64,000 bases of DNA from Candidatus Aenigmatarchaeota archaeon. Its GTDB lineage: Archaea; Aenigmatarchaeota; Aenigmatarchaeia; CG10238-14; SCSR01. The notes under the pieces are model-generated. The model searched no databases and was not told the origin of the DNA. It was given only the letters and a program-made list of their open reading frames with translations. The DNA lies in NCBI GenBank assembly GCA_038999725.1, contig JAWBWS010000004.1, positions 10,296 through 74,295 on the forward strand. The letters are read 5' to 3'. The position numbers and the translations under genes are program-made. Shown here piece after piece: positions 49,483 through 61,793 of this stretch (within the stretch, counting starts at the first letter, position 1; every line of letters begins with the position of its first letter).

Positions 49483-49582
49483 AGAAAAAATCTTCTAATA
49501 ATTTTCTCAGGAACTTAGATTGTTTCAAACTTCAAGAGTGATTCTTATATTTCTCCATTGAAGCATCTTAAATACAAAACAA

Positions 49583-50266
49583 TCAAAGAAGACTCAACTT
49601 TTTCAAACCATCAACAATACTCTCCACAACTTTTTCAGGCGGCTTGTTCATCCAAACTTCAATGAAGGGAGTTTTCTTCTCTCTATAAAACTGAATCAAA
49701 GGCATGGTTTGTTTTTTATAAATTTCAATCCTTTCTCTAACAATTTCAGGTTTGTCGTCAACCCTTTGAATTAAAGGTGAACCACATTTGTCACATATCA
49801 TGTCTTTTTTCGGAAGAAGTGGTGGAAGCTCATACTCTATTCCTTCTATCACTCTTTTTATCTCGGCTATGTTATAATTTCCATCACATTTTGGATTAGA
49901 ACAAATCCTTCTTGCACAAACTTTCTCGATTAAAATTACATCATGGGCCTTTACCAATATTATAGCATCAATTTTAGCAATTTCCTCCAAAGCTTTAGCT
50001 TGTTCTATTGTTCTTGGAAAACCATCAAGGATGAAATTCTCTTTTCCTTTCAATTCTTGTCTCACAACTTCTATCACAATATTGTCAGGAACCAATTCTC
50101 CTTTAGAGATATAACCTTCAACCATTTTCCCCAATAAATTTCCCTCTTTCACAGCAGCTCTGAAAATATCACCAGTAGCTATTTTTTCGATTCCCAAAAT
50201 TTCTTTGAGTCTAGAAGAGTAAGTTCCTTTGCCTGAGCCAGGAGGGCCAAAAATTATTAGCTTCAT
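49583..50266 (-). CDS. adk: Adenylate kinase, bacterial-type with Cys-containing lid
   Basis: GPPGSGKGT, G.LVPD, LDGFPRT. Confidence 0.92.
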   Translation of the reverse strand: MKLIIFGPPGSGKGTYSSRLKEILGIEKIATGDIFRAAVKEGNLLGKMVEGYISKGELVPDNIVIEVVRQELKGKENFILDGFPRTIEQAKALEEIAKIDAIILVKAHDVILIEKVCARRICSNPKCDGNYNIAEIKRVIEGIEYELPPLLPKKDMICDKCGSPLIQRVDDKPEIVRERIEIYKKQTMPLIQFYREKKTPFIEVWMNKPPEKVVESIVDGLKKLSLL

Positions 50267-50847
50267 TTCATCATCTCTATTAATTTAATTATTTCTTCAG
50301 CCCCTCTTTTAGCTTGCTCAAAAGGTTCCTTTTCCCCGAACCTTAAATTTATTATTTTAACTGGGCACTCAAATTCACTTGCAACATCAATAGCCACTTG
50401 TCTATTCACAGTTTGATGCTCTTCAATTTCCTCCAAACTTTCTATATCTCTTTTCCTCGTTTTATCATCAATTCTTCTTTTCAAAACATCTTCGGGGTTA
50501 AACTCCAAAAGAACAATCAAGTCAGGCTTCATTATTCTCATCGTTTTTTCAGAAAGAGCATGAAAATAGCCATATGGTGTTTTGATTGTAACATGAGTGT
50601 TAATGAGCAAAATTTTATCCTTCATGTTTGAAATCTTTTTTGCCACAATTTCTTGAATCTCTCTTTGTTGTTTAAGGGTCAATTTTTTTCTCAATTCATC
50701 TCTGTCTTCAATTCCATATTTTTCTGAAGCAATTTCAAGGAATAAATCTCCCACTGTCACAACTTTGGCTTCGGGTAATTTTTCTTTCACAAATTGTAAA
50801 ACTGTACTTTTCCCCCCACCAGGAACAGAAACCACAAGAATTTTCAT
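50263..50847 (-). CDS. adkA: Adenylate kinase, archaeal type
   Basis: VPGGGKST, DRDELRK, NTH..IKTP.GY, RR..D.TR.RD, HQ..NR. Confidence 0.88.
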   Translation of the reverse strand: MKILVVSVPGGGKSTVLQFVKEKLPEAKVVTVGDLFLEIASEKYGIEDRDELRKKLTLKQQREIQEIVAKKISNMKDKILLINTHVTIKTPYGYFHALSEKTMRIMKPDLIVLLEFNPEDVLKRRIDDKTRKRDIESLEEIEEHQTVNRQVAIDVASEFECPVKIINLRFGEKEPFEQAKRGAEEIIKLIEMMK

Positions 50848-50890
50848 TTTCTCTTAAATATTTATTAAATAGGTTTAAATTAAAATTCAA

Positions 50891-50996
50891 GCTGGTGTAG
50901 ATTAGTGGTTAAATCGCGGCGCTCATAGCATCTGTGAGCTTTGATAGAAAGATGAAAGAAACGCCGAGATCGCGGGTTCAAATCCCGCCACCAGCA
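50891..50996 (+). tRNA. tRNA-Met(CAT), elongator type, with a 33-nt intron at 37/38 (50928-50960)
   Basis: Acceptor GCTGGTG/CACCAGC; anticodon stem CGGCG/CGCCG; T arm GCGGG-TTCAAAT-CCCGC; G1 start and no GGG/CCC stem argue against initiator. Confidence 0.88.
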
Positions 50997-51089
50997 TTTT
51001 TGAATTATTCCTAAAAGAATTATGAAAATGGCCTTTCACCTTTAGGATTTAAAAGTTTTAAAACAAAAATAAATTAAACCGGTGTTGAT

Positions 51090-51305
51090 ATGGAATTGAC
51101 GCCAGAAGAAGCAAAGGTTGTTGAGGCAATGAAATCTTTAAAAGCAGTGTCAGAAGATAAGATAAAAGATGCTGACCAAATCGCGAAAGCTGCCATGATG
51201 CCAAAGGGTAAAGTGGCTAACCTTCTATTAAGTTTGATGAACAAGAAAGTTGTGAAAAGGGTTGCCAGAGAAAAAGCCGCAGGCTACTATTTACTCCAAG
51301 CTTAA
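51090..51305 (+). CDS. Small winged-helix protein
   Basis: ADQIAKAAMMPKGKVANLLLSL..K.VVKR...AGYY. Confidence 0.7.
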   Translation: MELTPEEAKVVEAMKSLKAVSEDKIKDADQIAKAAMMPKGKVANLLLSLMNKKVVKRVAREKAAGYYLLQA

Positions 51306-51416
51306 CAGAACCTGATTTTCAATTGAATTTTGTTTACTGCTATTTATAACCAACTTTTAAAAGTTGAATAAAGTTAATTTTACTCTTTCCCTTCCTTAAC
51401 CCAATAGCTTTCCAAC

Positions 51417-52652
51417 TTATATCCTCAACTTTTGATTTTTTTCCCATTCCTCAACTCTTCTTCTGTATTCGCCCAACTCTTTTTCATAAATTTCTTGAGC
51501 GCGTTTTTCTTCTTCACCCAACCTTTTCTTCTCAACCTCCCAGTCTTTTATACTATACACACCAATTTTTTTTACAACATCCTCAAAAGGTCTACCTAAA
51601 ACTGCGGCTATGTGCTTCAAAGTTAGATCAATTTTTTCACCTTTTCTAGGAAGATAAATGGGATAGCTAGAGGTCATCTTTTGGATTCTCCAGTATATTA
51701 CACACTCGTCTTCATTTGTTAGATTGTATTTCTTCTTAATATTTAACCAACTTTCATAATCTAAACAACCCTTGGCGATAGCAACAACAAAAAGCTCTTT
51801 TACAGGTTCCCTACACCCAGGCTTGTCAGAAAATACATTCTCAACCCTATTCTTTATCGCTACCGTAATTTCTTCCTTGATTGAATCCAAACTTTCTATT
51901 TTTTCTTTCATTTCCTTTTTCACTCTCTCTTTAATTTCTTCAAAAGATGGTGGTGTGAATGGAGGTGGTAAAGGACTTTCAACATCTATCTCATCCTCTT
52001 TTTTGATTTCTTGTAACAAATCTTCAATTTTTAAATTCAACTTTTTTGCCAATTTAACTGCAGGATCAATCACCTTATCTTTCAAGTAGGATTTTATCAC
52101 CCATTTTTCTATAGGAAAACTTCTATCTTCGACTTTTTCTCCAATTAAAACATAAAATTTCTTCCTTCTTTTATCTTCTTCAAACTTAACAACCTGGCTT
52201 CTCCTCTGGATAAAATAGCCCATGCTCCCCAAAAATTGCTCGATTTCTTTCACATCTTTCCCCCTTGATTCCGGTTCCACCACCACAATTTTACCACCAA
52301 CCTTTAAGCTGTAATCTAAACCAAGAAGGGTAGCGCCCTTTGCTTGTCGATGAAGGTTATGAAGAGTTAAGTTACAAAATATGTAGTCAAAAGCCTCCTT
52401 TCTCCATGGAATCGAGTAAGGGTAAACGCATACAACAAAATCGGTATTGTAAGTTTTCTTGGCCAATGAGCGAGCTTTAGCATAAGAATCTGTTGTGAGA
52501 ACATGGGAAGAAATTTGCCTATCTTCAATCATCTCCAAGAGAGCAGAACACTCTTCACATCCAACTTCCAATAACTTTTTTTCTTCCAATTCCATCTCTT
52601 CTATCAAGTTTGCCAATATCTGATGGGAAGCCACTTGAGAGGAAGAGCTCAT
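51417..52652 (-). CDS. Class I SAM-methyltransferase-like N-terminal domain plus unknown C-terminal region
   Basis: KLLEVGC, IPW...FDYI.C..TLH, LKVGGKIVVVE. Confidence 0.6.
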   Translation of the reverse strand: MSSSSQVASHQILANLIEEMELEEKKLLEVGCEECSALLEMIEDRQISSHVLTTDSYAKARSLAKKTYNTDFVVCVYPYSIPWRKEAFDYIFCNLTLHNLHRQAKGATLLGLDYSLKVGGKIVVVEPESRGKDVKEIEQFLGSMGYFIQRRSQVVKFEEDKRRKKFYVLIGEKVEDRSFPIEKWVIKSYLKDKVIDPAVKLAKKLNLKIEDLLQEIKKEDEIDVESPLPPPFTPPSFEEIKERVKKEMKEKIESLDSIKEEITVAIKNRVENVFSDKPGCREPVKELFVVAIAKGCLDYESWLNIKKKYNLTNEDECVIYWRIQKMTSSYPIYLPRKGEKIDLTLKHIAAVLGRPFEDVVKKIGVYSIKDWEVEKKRLGEEEKRAQEIYEKELGEYRRRVEEWEKNQKLRI

Positions 52653-52782
52653 AGTAGAAAAAGTTAACTTCCAACTTTTTAAACTTTTCTTCTCCTAAAA
52701 TTAACATTTTTACAGAAGTGTAGAATGAATAAAATTAAAGAAAACTTATCACCATACATTAGAGTATGAAAAGAGACAATAT

Positions 52783-52908
52783 GGCCTAGCTGGCGTAGCC
52801 TGGTTAGCGCACAGGCCAAGTGAATTCCTGAATGTGGACTAACCGGGCAGCAAGCCTGAAAGTGTGAAAACACTGGGTAAGGGCGGGGTTCGAATCCCCG
52901 GCTAGGCC
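52783..52908 (+). tRNA. tRNA-His(GTG) with encoded G-1 and three introns: 32/33 (52818-52832), 37/38 (52838-52852), 44/45 (52860-52880)
   Basis: 8-bp acceptor GGCCTAGC/GCTAGGCC; BHB helices CAGG/CCTG, CTGT/GCAG and GCCT/GGGT; spliced arm CAGGC-CTGTGGA-GCCTG. Confidence 0.88.
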
Positions 52909-52909
52909 A

Positions 52910-54058
52910 TCAATAGGATTTTATCTCAACATTTTCCAATACCTCTTCTATCATTTTCTCGATGTTTAATCTCTTCTCAAAACTTCTCACCAATTCTAAA
53001 TTTCCGGCAGCACTTGCATGCTTTGGTGTGAAGAGTGTGCAACAATCTTCTTGCGGCTTTATCGAAATTTCAAAAGTTCCAATTTTTTTCGCCAGTTCAA
53101 TTATCTCTTGCTTATCTAAACCCACTAAAGGCCTCAGGATTGGTAATTTGGTTACTTCTTCTATTATTCTCAAATTTTTCAAAGTTTGTGAGCTAACTTG
53201 AGCTAAACTTTCCCCTGTAACAATTCCATCACAACCTTCTTTTTCTGCAACTTTTTCAGCAATTCTAAGCATCATTCTTCTGTACAACAATATTCTGTAC
53301 CTTGGCTCAACACAAGCTTTAATCTTCATTTGAATTTTGTGAAAGGGGATGAAATAGACTTTGAGCTTTGGTTGATACCTTAAGAAAACTTGAGCAAGTT
53401 CTTTGACTTTTTGTATACTTGAATTTGAAACTAAGGGGAAGCTGTGAAAATGAACCCAAACATTTTCACTACCACGCTTAGCAATCAAGTAGCTTGCAAC
53501 TGGTGAATCAATTCCACCAGAGATTAAGGCCAGTGCTTTGCCCCCACTTCCAACAGGCAAGCCCCCCTTACCTTCCTTTTTCTTGAAATAAATAAACCAT
53601 CCATCTTTCCTTGCCTCTAAAAACAATTCAACATTTGGTTTTTCTAAATCAACCTTTCTTTCTATTTTACTTGCAACTTTCCTTATTATTTCTTCACTAC
53701 TTTCTTTCAAGTTACCTTTCTTGAGCCTTATGGCAAAAGTTTGCCTTTTCTTCACCCACTTTTCATGATTTTCTTCTATAAACTTCAAAAGCTCTTCTAG
53801 ATTACCTTCTAAAAAAATGACATCAGCAAACCAGGAAATTCCAAAAACATTTTTTATGATTTTCTCTGCTTTTTTTATTTCACCCGTTTCAATAAAAATT
53901 CTCTCTCTTGATGGGAATATTTTAAAGTTCACTCCAGCCTTTTTGAGAAAAACGGAAATATTACTGGTGAGTTTTTGTAAAAAAAGATTTCTAACTCTCT
54001 CAGACTTAAGAAAGAGTTCACCAAAAGCTATCAAAATACCTCTCTTGATTTTCTCCAT
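52910..54058 (-). CDS. thiI: tRNA 4-thiouridine synthase
   Basis: GELFLKS, GGLPVG, SGGIDSPVA, TGESLAQVSSQT, EDCC. Confidence 0.95.
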   Translation of the reverse strand: MEKIKRGILIAFGELFLKSERVRNLFLQKLTSNISVFLKKAGVNFKIFPSRERIFIETGEIKKAEKIIKNVFGISWFADVIFLEGNLEELLKFIEENHEKWVKKRQTFAIRLKKGNLKESSEEIIRKVASKIERKVDLEKPNVELFLEARKDGWFIYFKKKEGKGGLPVGSGGKALALISGGIDSPVASYLIAKRGSENVWVHFHSFPLVSNSSIQKVKELAQVFLRYQPKLKVYFIPFHKIQMKIKACVEPRYRILLYRRMMLRIAEKVAEKEGCDGIVTGESLAQVSSQTLKNLRIIEEVTKLPILRPLVGLDKQEIIELAKKIGTFEISIKPQEDCCTLFTPKHASAAGNLELVRSFEKRLNIEKMIEEVLENVEIKSY

Positions 54059-54990
54059 ATTTTCACTTTAAAAAACAAAAACACTTAAATATACTTATTT
54101 CCATTAATTTATTTGACTCATGAGCTTGGCGTTTAGGCTTTGATAACGTCAAGAGACAAAAGATGAAATGTCCTATTCTGGCTCATGAGAAATTGTCCTG
54201 AAGTGAAAGAGCTTCAGGTAGGTTGATTGGTGAAACCTAGAGGTAGGGCCCGCCAATTCTGGTTGATCCCGCCAGAGGCCACTGCTATCCGGCTTCTACT
54301 AAGCCATGCGAGTCGAGAGGGGAAAGCCCTCGGCGCACTGCTCCGTAATATGCAGTCAACCTACCCTTAGCTGGGGGATAATCTCGGGAAACTGAGGCTA
54401 ATACCCCATAGGTGCTTGGTACTGGAAGGTCCTAGCACCCAAAGCTTCGGCGGCTAAGGATGGGACTGCAGCCTATCAGCTTGTTGTGGAGGTAAAGGCT
54501 CCACAAGGCGATAACGGGTACGGGCTATGGAAGTAGGAGCCCGGAGATGGACTCTGAGACATGAGTCCAGGTCTTACGAGACGCAGCAGGCGAGAAACCT
54601 TTTCAATTCGCTCACGCGAGAAAAGGGAAGCCGGAGTGCCCTTGCTCTGCAAGGGCTTTTGCGGTCTGAAAACGGGACCGCGAATAAGGAGTGGGTAAGA
54701 CGGGTGCCAGCCGCCGCGGTAATACCCGCACTCCAAGTGGTGGCCACGATTATTGGGCCTAAAGCGTCCGTAGCCGGTTTGGTAAGTCCTCAGTGAAATC
54801 CTCTAGCAAACTAGAGGGCTTGCTGGGGATACTGCCAGACTTGAGACTGGGAGGGGGCAGGGGTACTCCCAGGGTAGGGGTGAAATCCTGTAATCCTGGG
54901 GGGACCACCTGTGGCGAAGGCGCCTGCCTGGAACAGGTCTGACGGTGAGGGACGAAAGCTAGGGGAGCGATCGGGATTAGATACCCCGGT

Positions 54991-55071
54991 ACACGAGATT
55001 GGGTATCTTCTGATTCAAGATGAAGAAAAATCCCAAAATTCCAAGCTAGGATTTCCTAACTCGTGCGGGAA
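54991..55071 (+). other. 16S intron 1 (81 nt, after E. coli ~801)
   Basis: Interrupts CCCGGT|AGTCC; BHB helix CCCG/CGGG, stem CACGAG/CTCGTG. Confidence 0.92.
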
Positions 55072-55252
55072 AGTCCTAGCCGTAAACGATGCCCTCTTGG
55101 TGTTGCAAGCTTCTCGGGAGCTTGCAGTGCCGGAGCGTAGGTGTTAAGAGGGCCGCCTGGGGAGTACGCCCGCAAGGGTGAAACTTAAGGGAATTGGCGG
55201 GGGAGCACACAAGGGGTGGGCGTTGCGGTTCAATTGGATTCAACGCCGGGAA

Positions 55253-55862
55253 AGGATAACATCAGTTAAGCTTAAATATCAGATATAGTAAAATTTACTA
55301 GTGGCGATATTATGGGTGTTTACGATGAAGTTTTGAATAATAAAACACTGGCTGCAAAAATATTACTTCCGTTGATAGAGTTTGAGTTTGGTTTAATGGG
55401 AGAAGATTCTCCAACATTAGTTCAAACACCCTCCAACCAAAAACAACTAGAAGTCATATTTAGTATATGCAAAAAATACGAGTGGACCACTTCCAAAAAT
55501 CTCAGAAAAAAGGGCGATAACTTGTATTTCAGACTTAAAAGGAGTGGTTTCAAAGAAATTTATCAGTTGGCCGGACCATTTGCAGATAAGGCAAAAGATG
55601 CTTGGGCCAAATTACTTATAGAACGAATTGGAAAAATTGGAGGATATAGAAAAAAAGAAAAACAAACACAAGAAAAAATATTGGGTATGTTAAATATGAA
55701 AAAGAACAAATGGTGGAAAATTGAAGAAATTTGTTTAAATTTAAGAATACTTCCAAGTACAATTAGAGAAAGTTTAAGAGATTTACAAAAAAGAAGATTA
55801 GTGAAAAGCAAAAAAATCGGAAAGGCTACTTATTGGAAAATTATCTGATGTTATCCCCCGAA
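55253..55862 (+). mobile_element. 16S intron 2 (610 nt, after E. coli ~978), ORF-containing
   Basis: Interrupts CGGGAA|TCTTACC; BHB helix CGGG/CCCG, 12-bp stem GGATAACATCAG/CTGATGTTATCC. Confidence 0.92.
55312..55848 (+). CDS. Intron-encoded protein: divergent single-motif LAGLIDADG-like domain plus C-terminal wHTH
   Basis: ILLPLIEFEFGL helix followed by a LAGLIDADG-like strand/helix pattern; IEEICLNLRILPSTIRESLRDLQKRRLV; TATA-like CTTAAATA at 55271. Confidence 0.6.
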   Translation: MGVYDEVLNNKTLAAKILLPLIEFEFGLMGEDSPTLVQTPSNQKQLEVIFSICKKYEWTTSKNLRKKGDNLYFRLKRSGFKEIYQLAGPFADKAKDAWAKLLIERIGKIGGYRKKEKQTQEKILGMLNMKKNKWWKIEEICLNLRILPSTIRESLRDLQKRRLVKSKKIGKATYWKII

Positions 55863-56081
55863 TCTTACCAGGGCCGACGGCAGGATGAAGGTCAGTCTGA
55901 AGGGCTTACCAGACAAGCCGAGAGGTGGTGCATGGCCATCGTCAGCTCGTACCGTGAGGCGTGCGCTTAAGTGCGTTAACGAGCGAGACCCACATCCCAT
56001 GTTGCTACTGCTTTCTCCGGAAAGCAGGCACTCATGGGAGACCGCTGGCGATAAGCCAGAGGAAGGAGTGGGCGACGGTAG

Positions 56082-56168
56082 ACAGGTAAAAGGCTCATAA
56101 CCGGTTCATGTGAAAAAAGATGAACATGAACAGCGCCCAGAGCCTTACATGTCTTTTACCTGACCGAA
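56082..56168 (+). ncRNA. 16S intron 3 (87 nt, after E. coli ~1197) containing an H/ACA guide RNA candidate
   Basis: BHB helix CGGT/ACCG; internal hairpin with pocket, K-loop and ACA at 56147. Confidence 0.8.
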
Positions 56169-56449
56169 GTCCGTATGCCCCGAATGCCCTGGGCCACACG
56201 CGACGCACAATGCGCGCCACAAAGGGATGCAACCCCGAAAGGGGAAGCGAATCCCCTAAAAGCGCGCCCAGTTCGGATCGAGGGCTGTAACTCGTCCTCG
56301 TGAAGCTGGAATCCCTAGTAAGCGAACGTCATCATCGTTCGCTGAATACGTCCCTGCTCCTTGCACACACTGCCCGTCAAGCCAATCGAGCGGAACTTCC
56401 TCGAGGCTTGTGATGAGCAAGTCGAGTGGAAGTTCTGTGAGAGGGGCTA

Positions 56450-56561
56450 ATCTCGGGAGTCCGAAAAATTAAAGCTAAGATGAAAAAATTGGCTTGACCC
56501 TGAAAATTGATGATGAGTCGGAGGTGAATTGATTTGGCTAGATGGACTCCCTAGAGCCTAA
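56450..56561 (+). ncRNA. 16S intron 4 (112 nt, between A1492 and A1493) containing a box C/D guide RNA candidate
   Basis: BHB helix GGGC/GCCT; boxes AAGATGA, CTGA, ATGATGA, TTGA; two antisense elements matching this 16S. Confidence 0.82.
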
Positions 56562-61516: not shown

Positions 61517-61693
61517 TACAAAATACAACTTATTTATTTGCCGGTGTCTGTATGTTTGCTTAGCTTAAGCATCGGCCTTCTTTATTTAGCGATGAGCTTG
61601 TTTTTCTTCTGATAAAAGATGAAGACGTGGACACCTTGCGAGCAATTCAACAGAATGCAACTCCTTATTAAAGAATAAGGGGTGAAGAGTGGA

Positions 61694-61754
61694 GGTTGAT
61701 GATAACATTTATTCGCCTGAAAAAAGATGAAGAGCGAACTGTCTATTTGAAACC
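61694..61754 (+). ncRNA. Box C/D sRNA candidate in the 23S leader
   Basis: GGTT/AACC terminal stem; TGATGA...CTGA...AGATGA...TTGA. Confidence 0.65.
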
Positions 61755-61793
61755 ATAAGATGACACTACCACAGGATCAAGGAGGTCACTAAG

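Follow-up and report, generated by a model that had tools for sequence, protein, structure and literature searches.

An intron in the tRNA-Met gene

The DNA analyzed here (the window) is a stretch of 64,000 nucleotides (nt) from contig JAWBWS010000004.1 of a Candidatus Aenigmatarchaeota archaeon, whose small assembly (730 kb in nine contigs, 93% complete, about 35% G+C) is called the host genome below. In it lies a tRNA-Met(CAU) gene whose anticodon loop is interrupted by one short intron, and this intron, a candidate box C/D-type methylation guide for its own precursor, is the subject of this work. The gene was missed by ARAGORN in default mode. It was matched by the Rfam tRNA model over 50891-50996 with an insertion of 35 bases in the anticodon loop. 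Reading the cloverleaf from G1 at 50891, the anticodon stem is formed by CGGCG (50917-21) and CGCCG (50962-66), and the loop positions C32 U33 C34 A35 U36 A37 fall at 50922-27. One A can be assigned to either side of the splice boundary, and the intron ends in AAGAA (50956-60). All features are collected in Table 1.

Table 1. Features of the interrupted tRNA-Met gene; positions refer to the window
Feature	Positions	Strand	Basis or remark
tRNA-Met(CAU) gene, elongator type, one intron	50891..50996	+	Rfam RF00005, 62.2 bits; sequence
5' exon	50891-50927	+	own cloverleaf reading
Intron (33 nt, site 37/38)	50928-50960	+	own cloverleaf reading
3' exon	50961-50996	+	own cloverleaf reading
Anticodon CAT; C34 (50924) is the predicted 2'-O-methylation target	50924..50926	+	cloverleaf reading; count of N+5 from D'
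Target strand GCTCATAG (G31 C32 U33 C34 A35 U36 A37 and first intron base)	50921..50928	+	sequence, fold prediction
Hairpin loop CAT, 3 nt	50929-31	+	sequence; closed by the guide/target duplex
CATCT, complementary to AGATG (50950-54)	50929..50933	+	present here, not conserved
Guide CTGTGAGC	50932..50939	+	8 pairs with the target strand, one G.U (U50926.G50934)
Spacer T (N+1, 50940) and D'-like box TTGA (50941-44)	50940..50944	+	sequence
Loop of the K-loop, TAGAA, 5 nt	50945..50949	+	sequence
C'-like box AAGATGA (core AGATGA, 50950-55)	50949..50955	+	sequence
Intron tail	50955..50960	+	AAAG (50955-58), strand for nt 32-35 in the bulge-helix-bulge; AA (50959-60) and A38, 3' bulge

Judged by its features, the CAU tRNA is an elongator tRNA-Met, neither an initiator nor tRNA-Ile2. 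The initiator is disfavored because the gene has G1-C72 in place of A1-U72 and no GGG/CCC anticodon stem; the initiator tRNAs of two genomes of the same genus have that stem and an intact anticodon loop. tRNA-Ile2 is disfavored because TiaS was not found and a tRNA-Ile(UAU) is present. The TiaS search gave no match in the 93%-complete genome, its controls being positive in four archaea, and AUA is apparently decoded by tRNA-Ile(UAU) in this organism. No initiator tRNA-Met was recognized in the host assembly. In one same-genus genome (G001) the initiator has an intact anticodon loop and a 5' half that is seemingly interrupted.

The intron segment that is complementary to the anticodon loop lies directly upstream of a D'-like box, and the fifth base counted upstream from this box (N+5) is G50936, paired with C50924, the wobble nucleotide C34. 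The resulting hairpin is the minimum-free-energy fold of the tRNA-Met arm (-14.9 kcal/mol, z -2.5), a value equalled by 0 of 200 shuffled sequences, and its pair probabilities are 0.93-0.98. At the sequence level a kink loop (K-loop) is present as well, TTGA and AAGATGA standing five bases apart. A first-pass annotation of this DNA had named these elements and the pairing of the fifth nucleotide upstream of D' with C34; all of them are found base for base, as are the complementarity of CATCT (50929-33) to AGATG (50950-54) and a weak CTCA/AAAG helix with two of four pairs.

Recurrence of the intron architecture

A D' box followed by a C' box is a common sight in this AT-rich genome. Depending on the definition, 182 or 283 loose D'/C' motifs occur in the host genome, and an 8-mer complement lies nearby at 31 of the 283 (11%), compared with 8.2% at random places. 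The loose motif alone thus proves nothing, being frequent by chance and barely enriched in complements, and a chance resemblance in an AT-rich intron might appear an adequate explanation on these numbers. The complete architecture behaves differently. It recurs in seven of the 35 Rfam tRNA matches of the host genome, namely Met-CAU, Lys-UUU, Arg-UCU, Trp-CCA, Leu-CAA, Gln-UUG and Glu-UUC, always in the same order: anticodon loop, short loop, a complement of nt 31-37, one base, D' (TTGA, CTGA or CGGA), three to five bases, AGATGA, and an A-rich tail ending in AA, with A38 following across the splice site. The tRNA-Trp intron carries the canonical CTGA as D'. The remaining tRNA introns here, for the most part about 12 nt long, have neither hairpin nor boxes, and Lys-CUU and Gln-CUG are likewise without the module.

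A pattern consisting of the C' box (AGATGA) and then the T loop occurs seven times in the host genome and in 59 of 60 relatives, which represent seven families of the order; its reversed version occurs not once in the host and zero to two times per relative. Across the phylum the pattern is present in 182 of 300 genomes, covering nearly all of the host's own order and being patchy elsewhere. From 130 loci and the seven host genes, 139 pattern matches were collected, 99 of which parsed well as tRNAs, 13 poorly and 27 not at all (extra introns or non-tRNA sequence). A duplex of at least 5 base pairs (bp) running through nt 34, with its partner 10-16 nt before C', was present in 88 of the 99; removal of four duplicates left 84 distinct arms. 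Since ARAGORN in intron mode misplaces most introns of the host genome, anticodons were read by hand and with our own cloverleaf parser, and pairs were counted by register in scripts instead of with a covariance model, MAFFT having misaligned the seven host arms.

In 83 of these 84 arms the partner of nt 34 precedes a GA by exactly 7 nt and thereby occupies N+5 relative to a four-nucleotide D' box; no other offset is shared by more than eight arms, and the single exception to this ruler has CTAA. The D' boxes of the 83 are TTGA (57), CTGA (11), CGGA (5), TCGA (4), CAGA (3) and three further forms found once each, and the distance from the A of D' to the G of C' is 5-6 nt in 76 of them. Nine anticodons are represented (CCA 17, CAU 11, CAA 11, UUC 11, UUG 11, UUU 10, UAA 9, UCU 3 and CGA 1). 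Pairing with the guide spans nt 32-36 without exception, includes nt 31 in 80 arms and runs on into nt 37 and the intron in 51; the duplex measures 5-14 bp within the family and 8 bp here.

The guide also covaries with the anticodon. Position 31 is a G-C pair in 57 arms, C-G in 14 and A-U in nine; position 34 is U-A in 44 and C-G in 40; and at position 35 three Watson-Crick types occur. An arm forms 5.95 of six pairs on average, as compared with 4.26 (maximum 4.60) in 1000 permutations that reassign the guides to other tRNAs. What exceeds chance is, on this comparison, the whole architecture with its recurrence and fixed ruler, and not the motif. The seven host tRNAs, the 59 of 60 relatives, the covariation and the ruler all contradict a fortuitous origin, which we regard as exceedingly improbable.

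Searching named genomes for the tRNA-Met version returned 56 matches, about 42 of which are true tRNA-Met genes by their flanks and record titles, while about 14 are chance matches in bacteria that have no tRNA context. At least 21 of the true genes are titled Candidatus Aenigmatarchaeota and about 17 'uncultured archaeon' or 'archaeon', with one 'bacterium' and two Hadarchaeales/Hadesarchaea. The two records with the latter titles carry a tRNA-Met with the same single-K-loop intron, and for this reason the design is not confined to the DPANN phylum of the host.

Versions in a leader and across two introns

The same combination of elements is also found outside introns. The 5' leader of the tRNA-Ser(UGA) gene of the host genome, which lies outside the window (G000:C3:100965-100994), reads GGCTCAAGG-T-CTGA-TAAA-AGATGA, and GGCTCAAGG is complementary to nt 31-37 and the first two intron bases of this tRNA, with N+5 falling on U34. 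A search for the leader module returned 13 matches, spread over 12 of 60 relatives, and none in the control; each of the 13 lies just 5' of tRNA-Ser(UGA). With free spacing the search returned 39 matches (11 in the control); box motifs were present in just the same 13, and at the same spacing in each. The leader guide covaries with the first intron bases, as in GG/CC, AGA/TCT, TAAG/CTTA and AGT/ACT. Being outside any intron, the leader module cannot be a splicing motif.

A further arrangement was found among the tRNA-Trp genes. When the C' box was left free, 86 of 100 genomes were matched and RUGA emerged as the invariant core of C'. Read by eye, most forms are AGATGA, some are GGATGA, TGATGA or shifted by three bases, and one family has only (A/G)TGA(A/G)GA as C'. 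In about nine genomes a short 37/38 intron holds the guide and YTGA without a separate C'. On their own such introns would speak against a guide, but all six genes inspected have another intron immediately upstream of the anticodon stem, and in it a C-box-like motif (AGATGA three times, AATGA, ATGAAGA and GATGA). In these split genes a C box in the upstream intron and a D box in the 37/38 intron bracket the target-guide hairpin, which again amounts to a single motif. Over the three topologies a box of the C type and one of the D type have evidently been kept together by selection, the guide always lying beside the latter.

Competition with the splicing fold

Removal of the intron would require a different structure of the same arm. 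The canonical register of the bulge-helix-bulge pairs nt 32-35 with positions -3 to -6 of the intron. The tRNA-Met gene forms two of the four central pairs (CTCA/AAAG). Over the 84 arms nt 32 is paired in 83 cases, nt 33 in 76, nt 34 in 45 and nt 35 in 70, which adds up to 274 pairs in the canonical register versus 151-197 in shifted ones. Nucleotide 35 covaries with intron position -6 (A-U 19, C-G 18, U with A or G 32), and C34 faces A in 36 of 40 cases. The conserved guide pairing on one side and the conserved, covarying register of the tail on the other therefore indicate that both pairings of nt 32-35, mutually exclusive as they are, are under selection. A gene for the splicing endonuclease is present in the host genome as one PF01974 match (94 bits, a frame of 193 aa).

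The first-pass annotation had proposed two mutually exclusive folds and had drawn the splice-competent one with a CATCT/AGATG helix. The general idea holds in the family, given the guide in 84 of 84 arms and the tail register with its covariation between nt 35 and intron position -6. The specific helix does not: it is fully paired in three of 84 arms and, among the 11 tRNA-Met arms, in this gene alone. The alternative fold built on it reaches -8.8 kcal/mol compared with -14.9 kcal/mol for the guide fold and is thus about 6 kcal/mol less stable.

The weak tail helix invites another reading, in which TGAG is a strand of the central helix of a bulge-helix-bulge, for instance that of a nested intron, and the boxes are incidental. 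CTCA and TGAG would indeed form a perfect 4-bp central helix where the canonical tail offers two of four pairs. The pairing covers nt 36, nt 37 and the first intron base, however, which must be bulged for cleavage, TGAG lies 22 nt from the 3' splice site, and no second bulge-helix-bulge was seen for the segment. Across the family it is the tail that sits in the canonical register, with covariation at nt 35, the GA of D' is kept in 83 of 84 arms, and a version in a leader exists. The nested-intron reading of TGAG was rejected since the tail, not TGAG, occupies the canonical strand, and we consider it very unlikely.

A probable self-guiding precursor

From these observations we conclude that the 33-nt intron of pre-tRNA-Met is probably a minimal, cis-acting guide of the box C/D type with a single K-loop, directing 2'-O-methylation to nt 34. 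After transcription, the 8-nt guide would pair with nt 31-37 of its own anticodon loop, whereupon the adjacent D', loop and C' would fold as a K-loop and bind L7Ae. L7Ae would bring in Nop5 and fibrillarin, and fibrillarin would methylate the wobble C34 on its 2'-OH, this being the nucleotide that pairs with the fifth guide base before D'. Because nt 32-35 cannot pair with guide and tail together, the guide duplex must open before the splicing fold; the bulge-helix-bulge would then form and the splicing endonuclease would remove the intron. The same device may serve the wobble base of tRNA-Trp, Leu(CAA), Leu(UAA), Lys(UUU), Gln(UUG), Glu(UUC) and Arg(UCU) in this lineage. L7Ae binding, methylation, cis action and the order of events are what we infer from the sequences.

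Genes for the core C/D proteins are found in the host genome, with 280 bits for fibrillarin, 207 bits for Nop5, which is full length with its N-terminal and Nop domains, and 105 bits for L7Ae. The idea of a minimal cis guide for nt 34 in tRNA-Met, already put forward in the first-pass annotation, is thereby supported by seven introns, the N+5 ruler in 83 of 84 arms, the covariation, the leader form and the core proteins, although its focus on tRNA-Met was too narrow.

Carriers of the module with C34 are Met, Trp and Leu-CAA, and for Met and Trp misreading of an A-ending codon changes the meaning; carriers with U34 in split boxes are Lys, Glu, Gln, Arg-UCU and Leu-UAA. Exceptions to this pattern are Ser-UGA and one Ser-CGA. 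In Pyrococcus the known or predicted C/D targets at the wobble position include Met, Trp, Leu-CAA and Leu-UAA (PMC7994747), in Pyrobaculum Trp and Gln-UUG (PMC6009581), and in Haloferax sR-tMet targets the wobble position of tRNA-Met (PMC4033218). Sulfolobus tRNA-Gln has 2'-O-methyluridine at position 34 (Um34), and 2'-O-methylcytidine at this position (Cm34) reportedly precludes pairing with A3 (PMC7668247). The wobble positions of the carriers match these known or predicted C/D targets, and we count this as support for a guide. No match to Elp3 or to the PF01171 PP-loop (thiolase) family was obtained in the 93%-complete genome, controls being positive. At this completeness the result is suggestive and no proof; it fits ribose methylation as the remaining, and plausibly sole, wobble modification.

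Several points weigh against a guide of this kind. The sequencing runs listed for 49500-53500 include none of RNA, only six DNA runs labelled hot springs metagenome. The layout of paired C/D and C'/D' boxes is absent, with one motif in the intron and no second box pair seen in the exons or flanks. The D' box is TTGA, not CTGA, and the register of C' is ambiguous, with ATGAAAG at 50952-58 as an alternative. The duplex is short, the usual length in C/D guides being 10-12 bp. The arms come from relatives that share ancestry, so that the counts over 84 of them express conservation and covariation and not independent events, and part of the constancy of the offset could stem from a hairpin whose start is always beside the anticodon stem. 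Fibrillarin occurs in 292 of 300 genomes of the phylum, which makes its distribution uninformative. The AGATGA motif is found without an evident cis guide in 11 of 99 parsed tRNAs, for example Cys-GCA and Thr-CGU, and the flanks GTTCATG/CATGAAC of a 16S rRNA insertion (56052-56135) pair with each other to give a K-loop hairpin that has no evident exon guide. Finally, a synthetic ribonucleoprotein (RNP) with a single site was active but lost its site specificity (PMC1635284). Given the missing bipartite layout and the unspecific single-site RNP, we file the intron as a variant that would work like a box C/D guide and not as a standard member.

Introns of tRNA-Cys(GCA) and tRNA-Thr(CGU), at two loci each, have a TTGA/AGATGA-type motif and no evident complement to their own anticodon loop. 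Given such guide-less K-loops in tRNAs and in the 16S insertion, K-loops in introns may also serve purely structurally. A purely structural role of L7Ae binding is hence a live rival for the whole family: the K-loop would be a chaperone or handle that helps the pre-tRNA to fold or be spliced, and no methylation would take place. The poor or unspecific work of half-mer guides in vitro (PMC1635284) speaks for it too. Such a role, on the other hand, leaves the N+5 ruler in 83 of 84 arms unexplained, as it does the leader module that targets U34 from outside any intron, the split C/D variant in which the guide stays beside the D box, and the coincidence of the target set with the tRNAs known to carry a 2'-O-methylated nucleotide 34 (Nm34). 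The introns of about 12 nt in the host genome must moreover be spliced without any such hairpin. On balance we think a purely structural function unlikely.

The guide could also be genuine and act in trans, either as the excised intron (linear or circular) or from one pre-tRNA on another pre-tRNA or on a mature tRNA. Two half-mers could share one Nop5 dimer, to judge from structural work. In most arms the conserved pairing involves only the exon bases 31-36, so the spliced tRNA could be the target, and the RNP of the Haloferax Trp intron does act in trans (PMC11408192, PMC7994747). Against this stand the 6-9 bp, which are weak for bimolecular pairing in a hot-spring organism, the 51 of 84 arms whose pairing reaches nt 37 and the intron, and the covariation of the tRNA-Ser leader guide with intron bases, which makes the unspliced precursor its target. 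Action in trans therefore ranks for us as low as the structural role, and a cis-acting guide is preferred.

As for separate guides that could serve the same position, no stand-alone guide with correct box spacing was found among the perfect 9-mer complements in the host genome. One 11-nt perfect complement of the pre-tRNA-Met loop (G000:C1:228699) was tried as a trans guide and rejected, having no box at the right distance and an estimated chance expectation of about 0.35. A strict scan of the genome for bipartite C/D small RNAs (sRNAs) gave two matches, both coding-like, and none in the control, and Rfam at permissive thresholds placed no C/D family on tRNA-Met.

Relation to known guides and introns

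The closest known relative is the intron of euryarchaeal pre-tRNA-Trp, which in Haloferax volcanii and in Pyrococcus (sR50) is a C/D guide for Cm34 and Um39. Both introns sit at 37/38, carry a guide, predicted in the present case, for the wobble C34 of their own tRNA by the N+5 rule, pair in competition with splicing and use, or here would use, the same three core proteins. The euryarchaeal intron, roughly two to three times as long as the one described here, constitutes a full bipartite sRNA (C, D', C', D), has two guides and acts in trans, in contrast to one K-loop and one guide in 33 nt, distributed over about eight tRNA species and not restricted to Trp.

The wobble C34 of an intron-containing elongator pre-tRNA-Met is also the target of sR-tMet from Haloferax volcanii, reportedly described by Joardar et al. 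in 2011, and of an sRNA from Pyrococcus. Unlike the intron studied here, these are stand-alone RNAs acting in trans (PMC4033218, PMC7994747). Within DPANN archaea, the elongator tRNA-Met of Nanoarchaeum equitans has a 66-nt intron with C/D box features that yields a stable C/D-like RNA (Randau 2012, PMC3491384). It has terminal C and D boxes and a GC hairpin, and the available part of the report names no target (PMC3491384). The intron of the host is half as long, its D', loop and C' form an internal K-loop, and it has an explicit predicted target in cis.

In its composition of one kink-turn (K-turn) motif and one guide the intron resembles the synthetic half-mer box C/D RNPs of Hardin and Batey (2006, PMC1635284). 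Those constructs are artificial and unspecific, whereas here the hairpin loop tethers the guide to its target and may replace the second anchor. With ordinary archaeal bulge-helix-bulge introns it shares the position 37/38, the A-rich tail, the 3' bulge of AA and the following A, and the presence of an endonuclease gene; the ordinary introns of about 12 nt in the same genome differ in having neither guide hairpin nor box motifs.

Guides borne on introns are on record for euryarchaeal tRNA-Trp and, as a tentative case, for one Nanoarchaeum tRNA-Met; a 2024 review mentions tRNA-Trp alone. No description of single-K-loop guides in tRNA introns was found in the literature searched, which left most subscription journals outside and is not proof of absence. 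While intron-borne guides themselves are known, we thus found no paper on a cis module of about 25 nt with a single K-loop that spans eight tRNA species and three topologies, and this module appears to be undescribed.

Elements in and near ribosomal RNA genes

Comparable elements occur in the window beyond the tRNA-Met gene. The 16S rRNA gene contains an insertion of 82 nt (54984-55065) after GAUUAGAUA, flanked by CACGAG/CTCGTG. It holds GGGTATCT-T-CTGA-TTCA-AGATGA, which is complementary to the exon segment AGATACCC located 31 nt upstream, and by its sequence it repeats the cis-guide design, this time in an rRNA intron. A second insertion (55245-55855, 611 nt) has a long open reading frame when read by eye, and the third, of 84 nt (56052-56135), contains GTGA-AAAA-AGATGA.

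Near the 3' end of the 16S gene, at about 56430-56560 as placed by eye, lies an insertion with a bipartite C/D-like RNA of the form AAGATGA ... GGCTTGACC-CTGA-AAAT-TGATGA-GTCGGAGGTGAAT-TGA, the first guide of which is complementary to the exon segment GTCAAGCC about 120 nt upstream. A near-identical copy is found inside the tRNA-Ser(UGA) intron of six relatives. This occurrence of nearly the same RNA in a 16S insertion and in tRNA-Ser(UGA) introns suggests that guides may move between introns. Two further C/D-like RNAs stand in tandem in the leader just 5' of the 23S rRNA (61585-61770), with CGATGA...CTGA-TAAA-AGATGA... and TGATGA...CTGA-AAAA-AGATGA...TTGA. C/D-like RNAs with relaxed D boxes hence occur both near and inside rRNA genes.

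Implications

If the proposed role is correct, the intron would be the smallest natural box C/D guide, with one K-loop, about 8 nt of antisense and about 25 nt in total. A natural C/D enzyme could then achieve site specificity with one K-turn motif as long as guide and target are tethered, which would contradict the view, based on reconstitution, that two box motifs are needed for it. The three topologies, with the K-loop in an intron, with the K-loop in a leader, or with the C and D boxes divided between two introns, would provide natural controls for this notion, and methylation and splicing would be linked through competing folds.

For the biology of tRNA introns, a direct function of this kind would supply a concrete selective reason for their retention, which has been a long-standing puzzle. 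More tentatively, and with somewhat less than even confidence, we propose that in this reduced lineage, which seems to lack Elp3 and the PP-loop enzymes for thiolation, the tRNAs decoding purine-ending codons of split boxes obtain their wobble modification (Nm34) solely through self-guiding pre-tRNAs, whose single-K-loop guides of about 20 nt are placed in an intron, in a leader or split over two introns, and that the introns are kept because they are guides. A genome of 0.7 Mb would in this way have replaced several wobble-modification pathways by short cis elements and one general enzyme.

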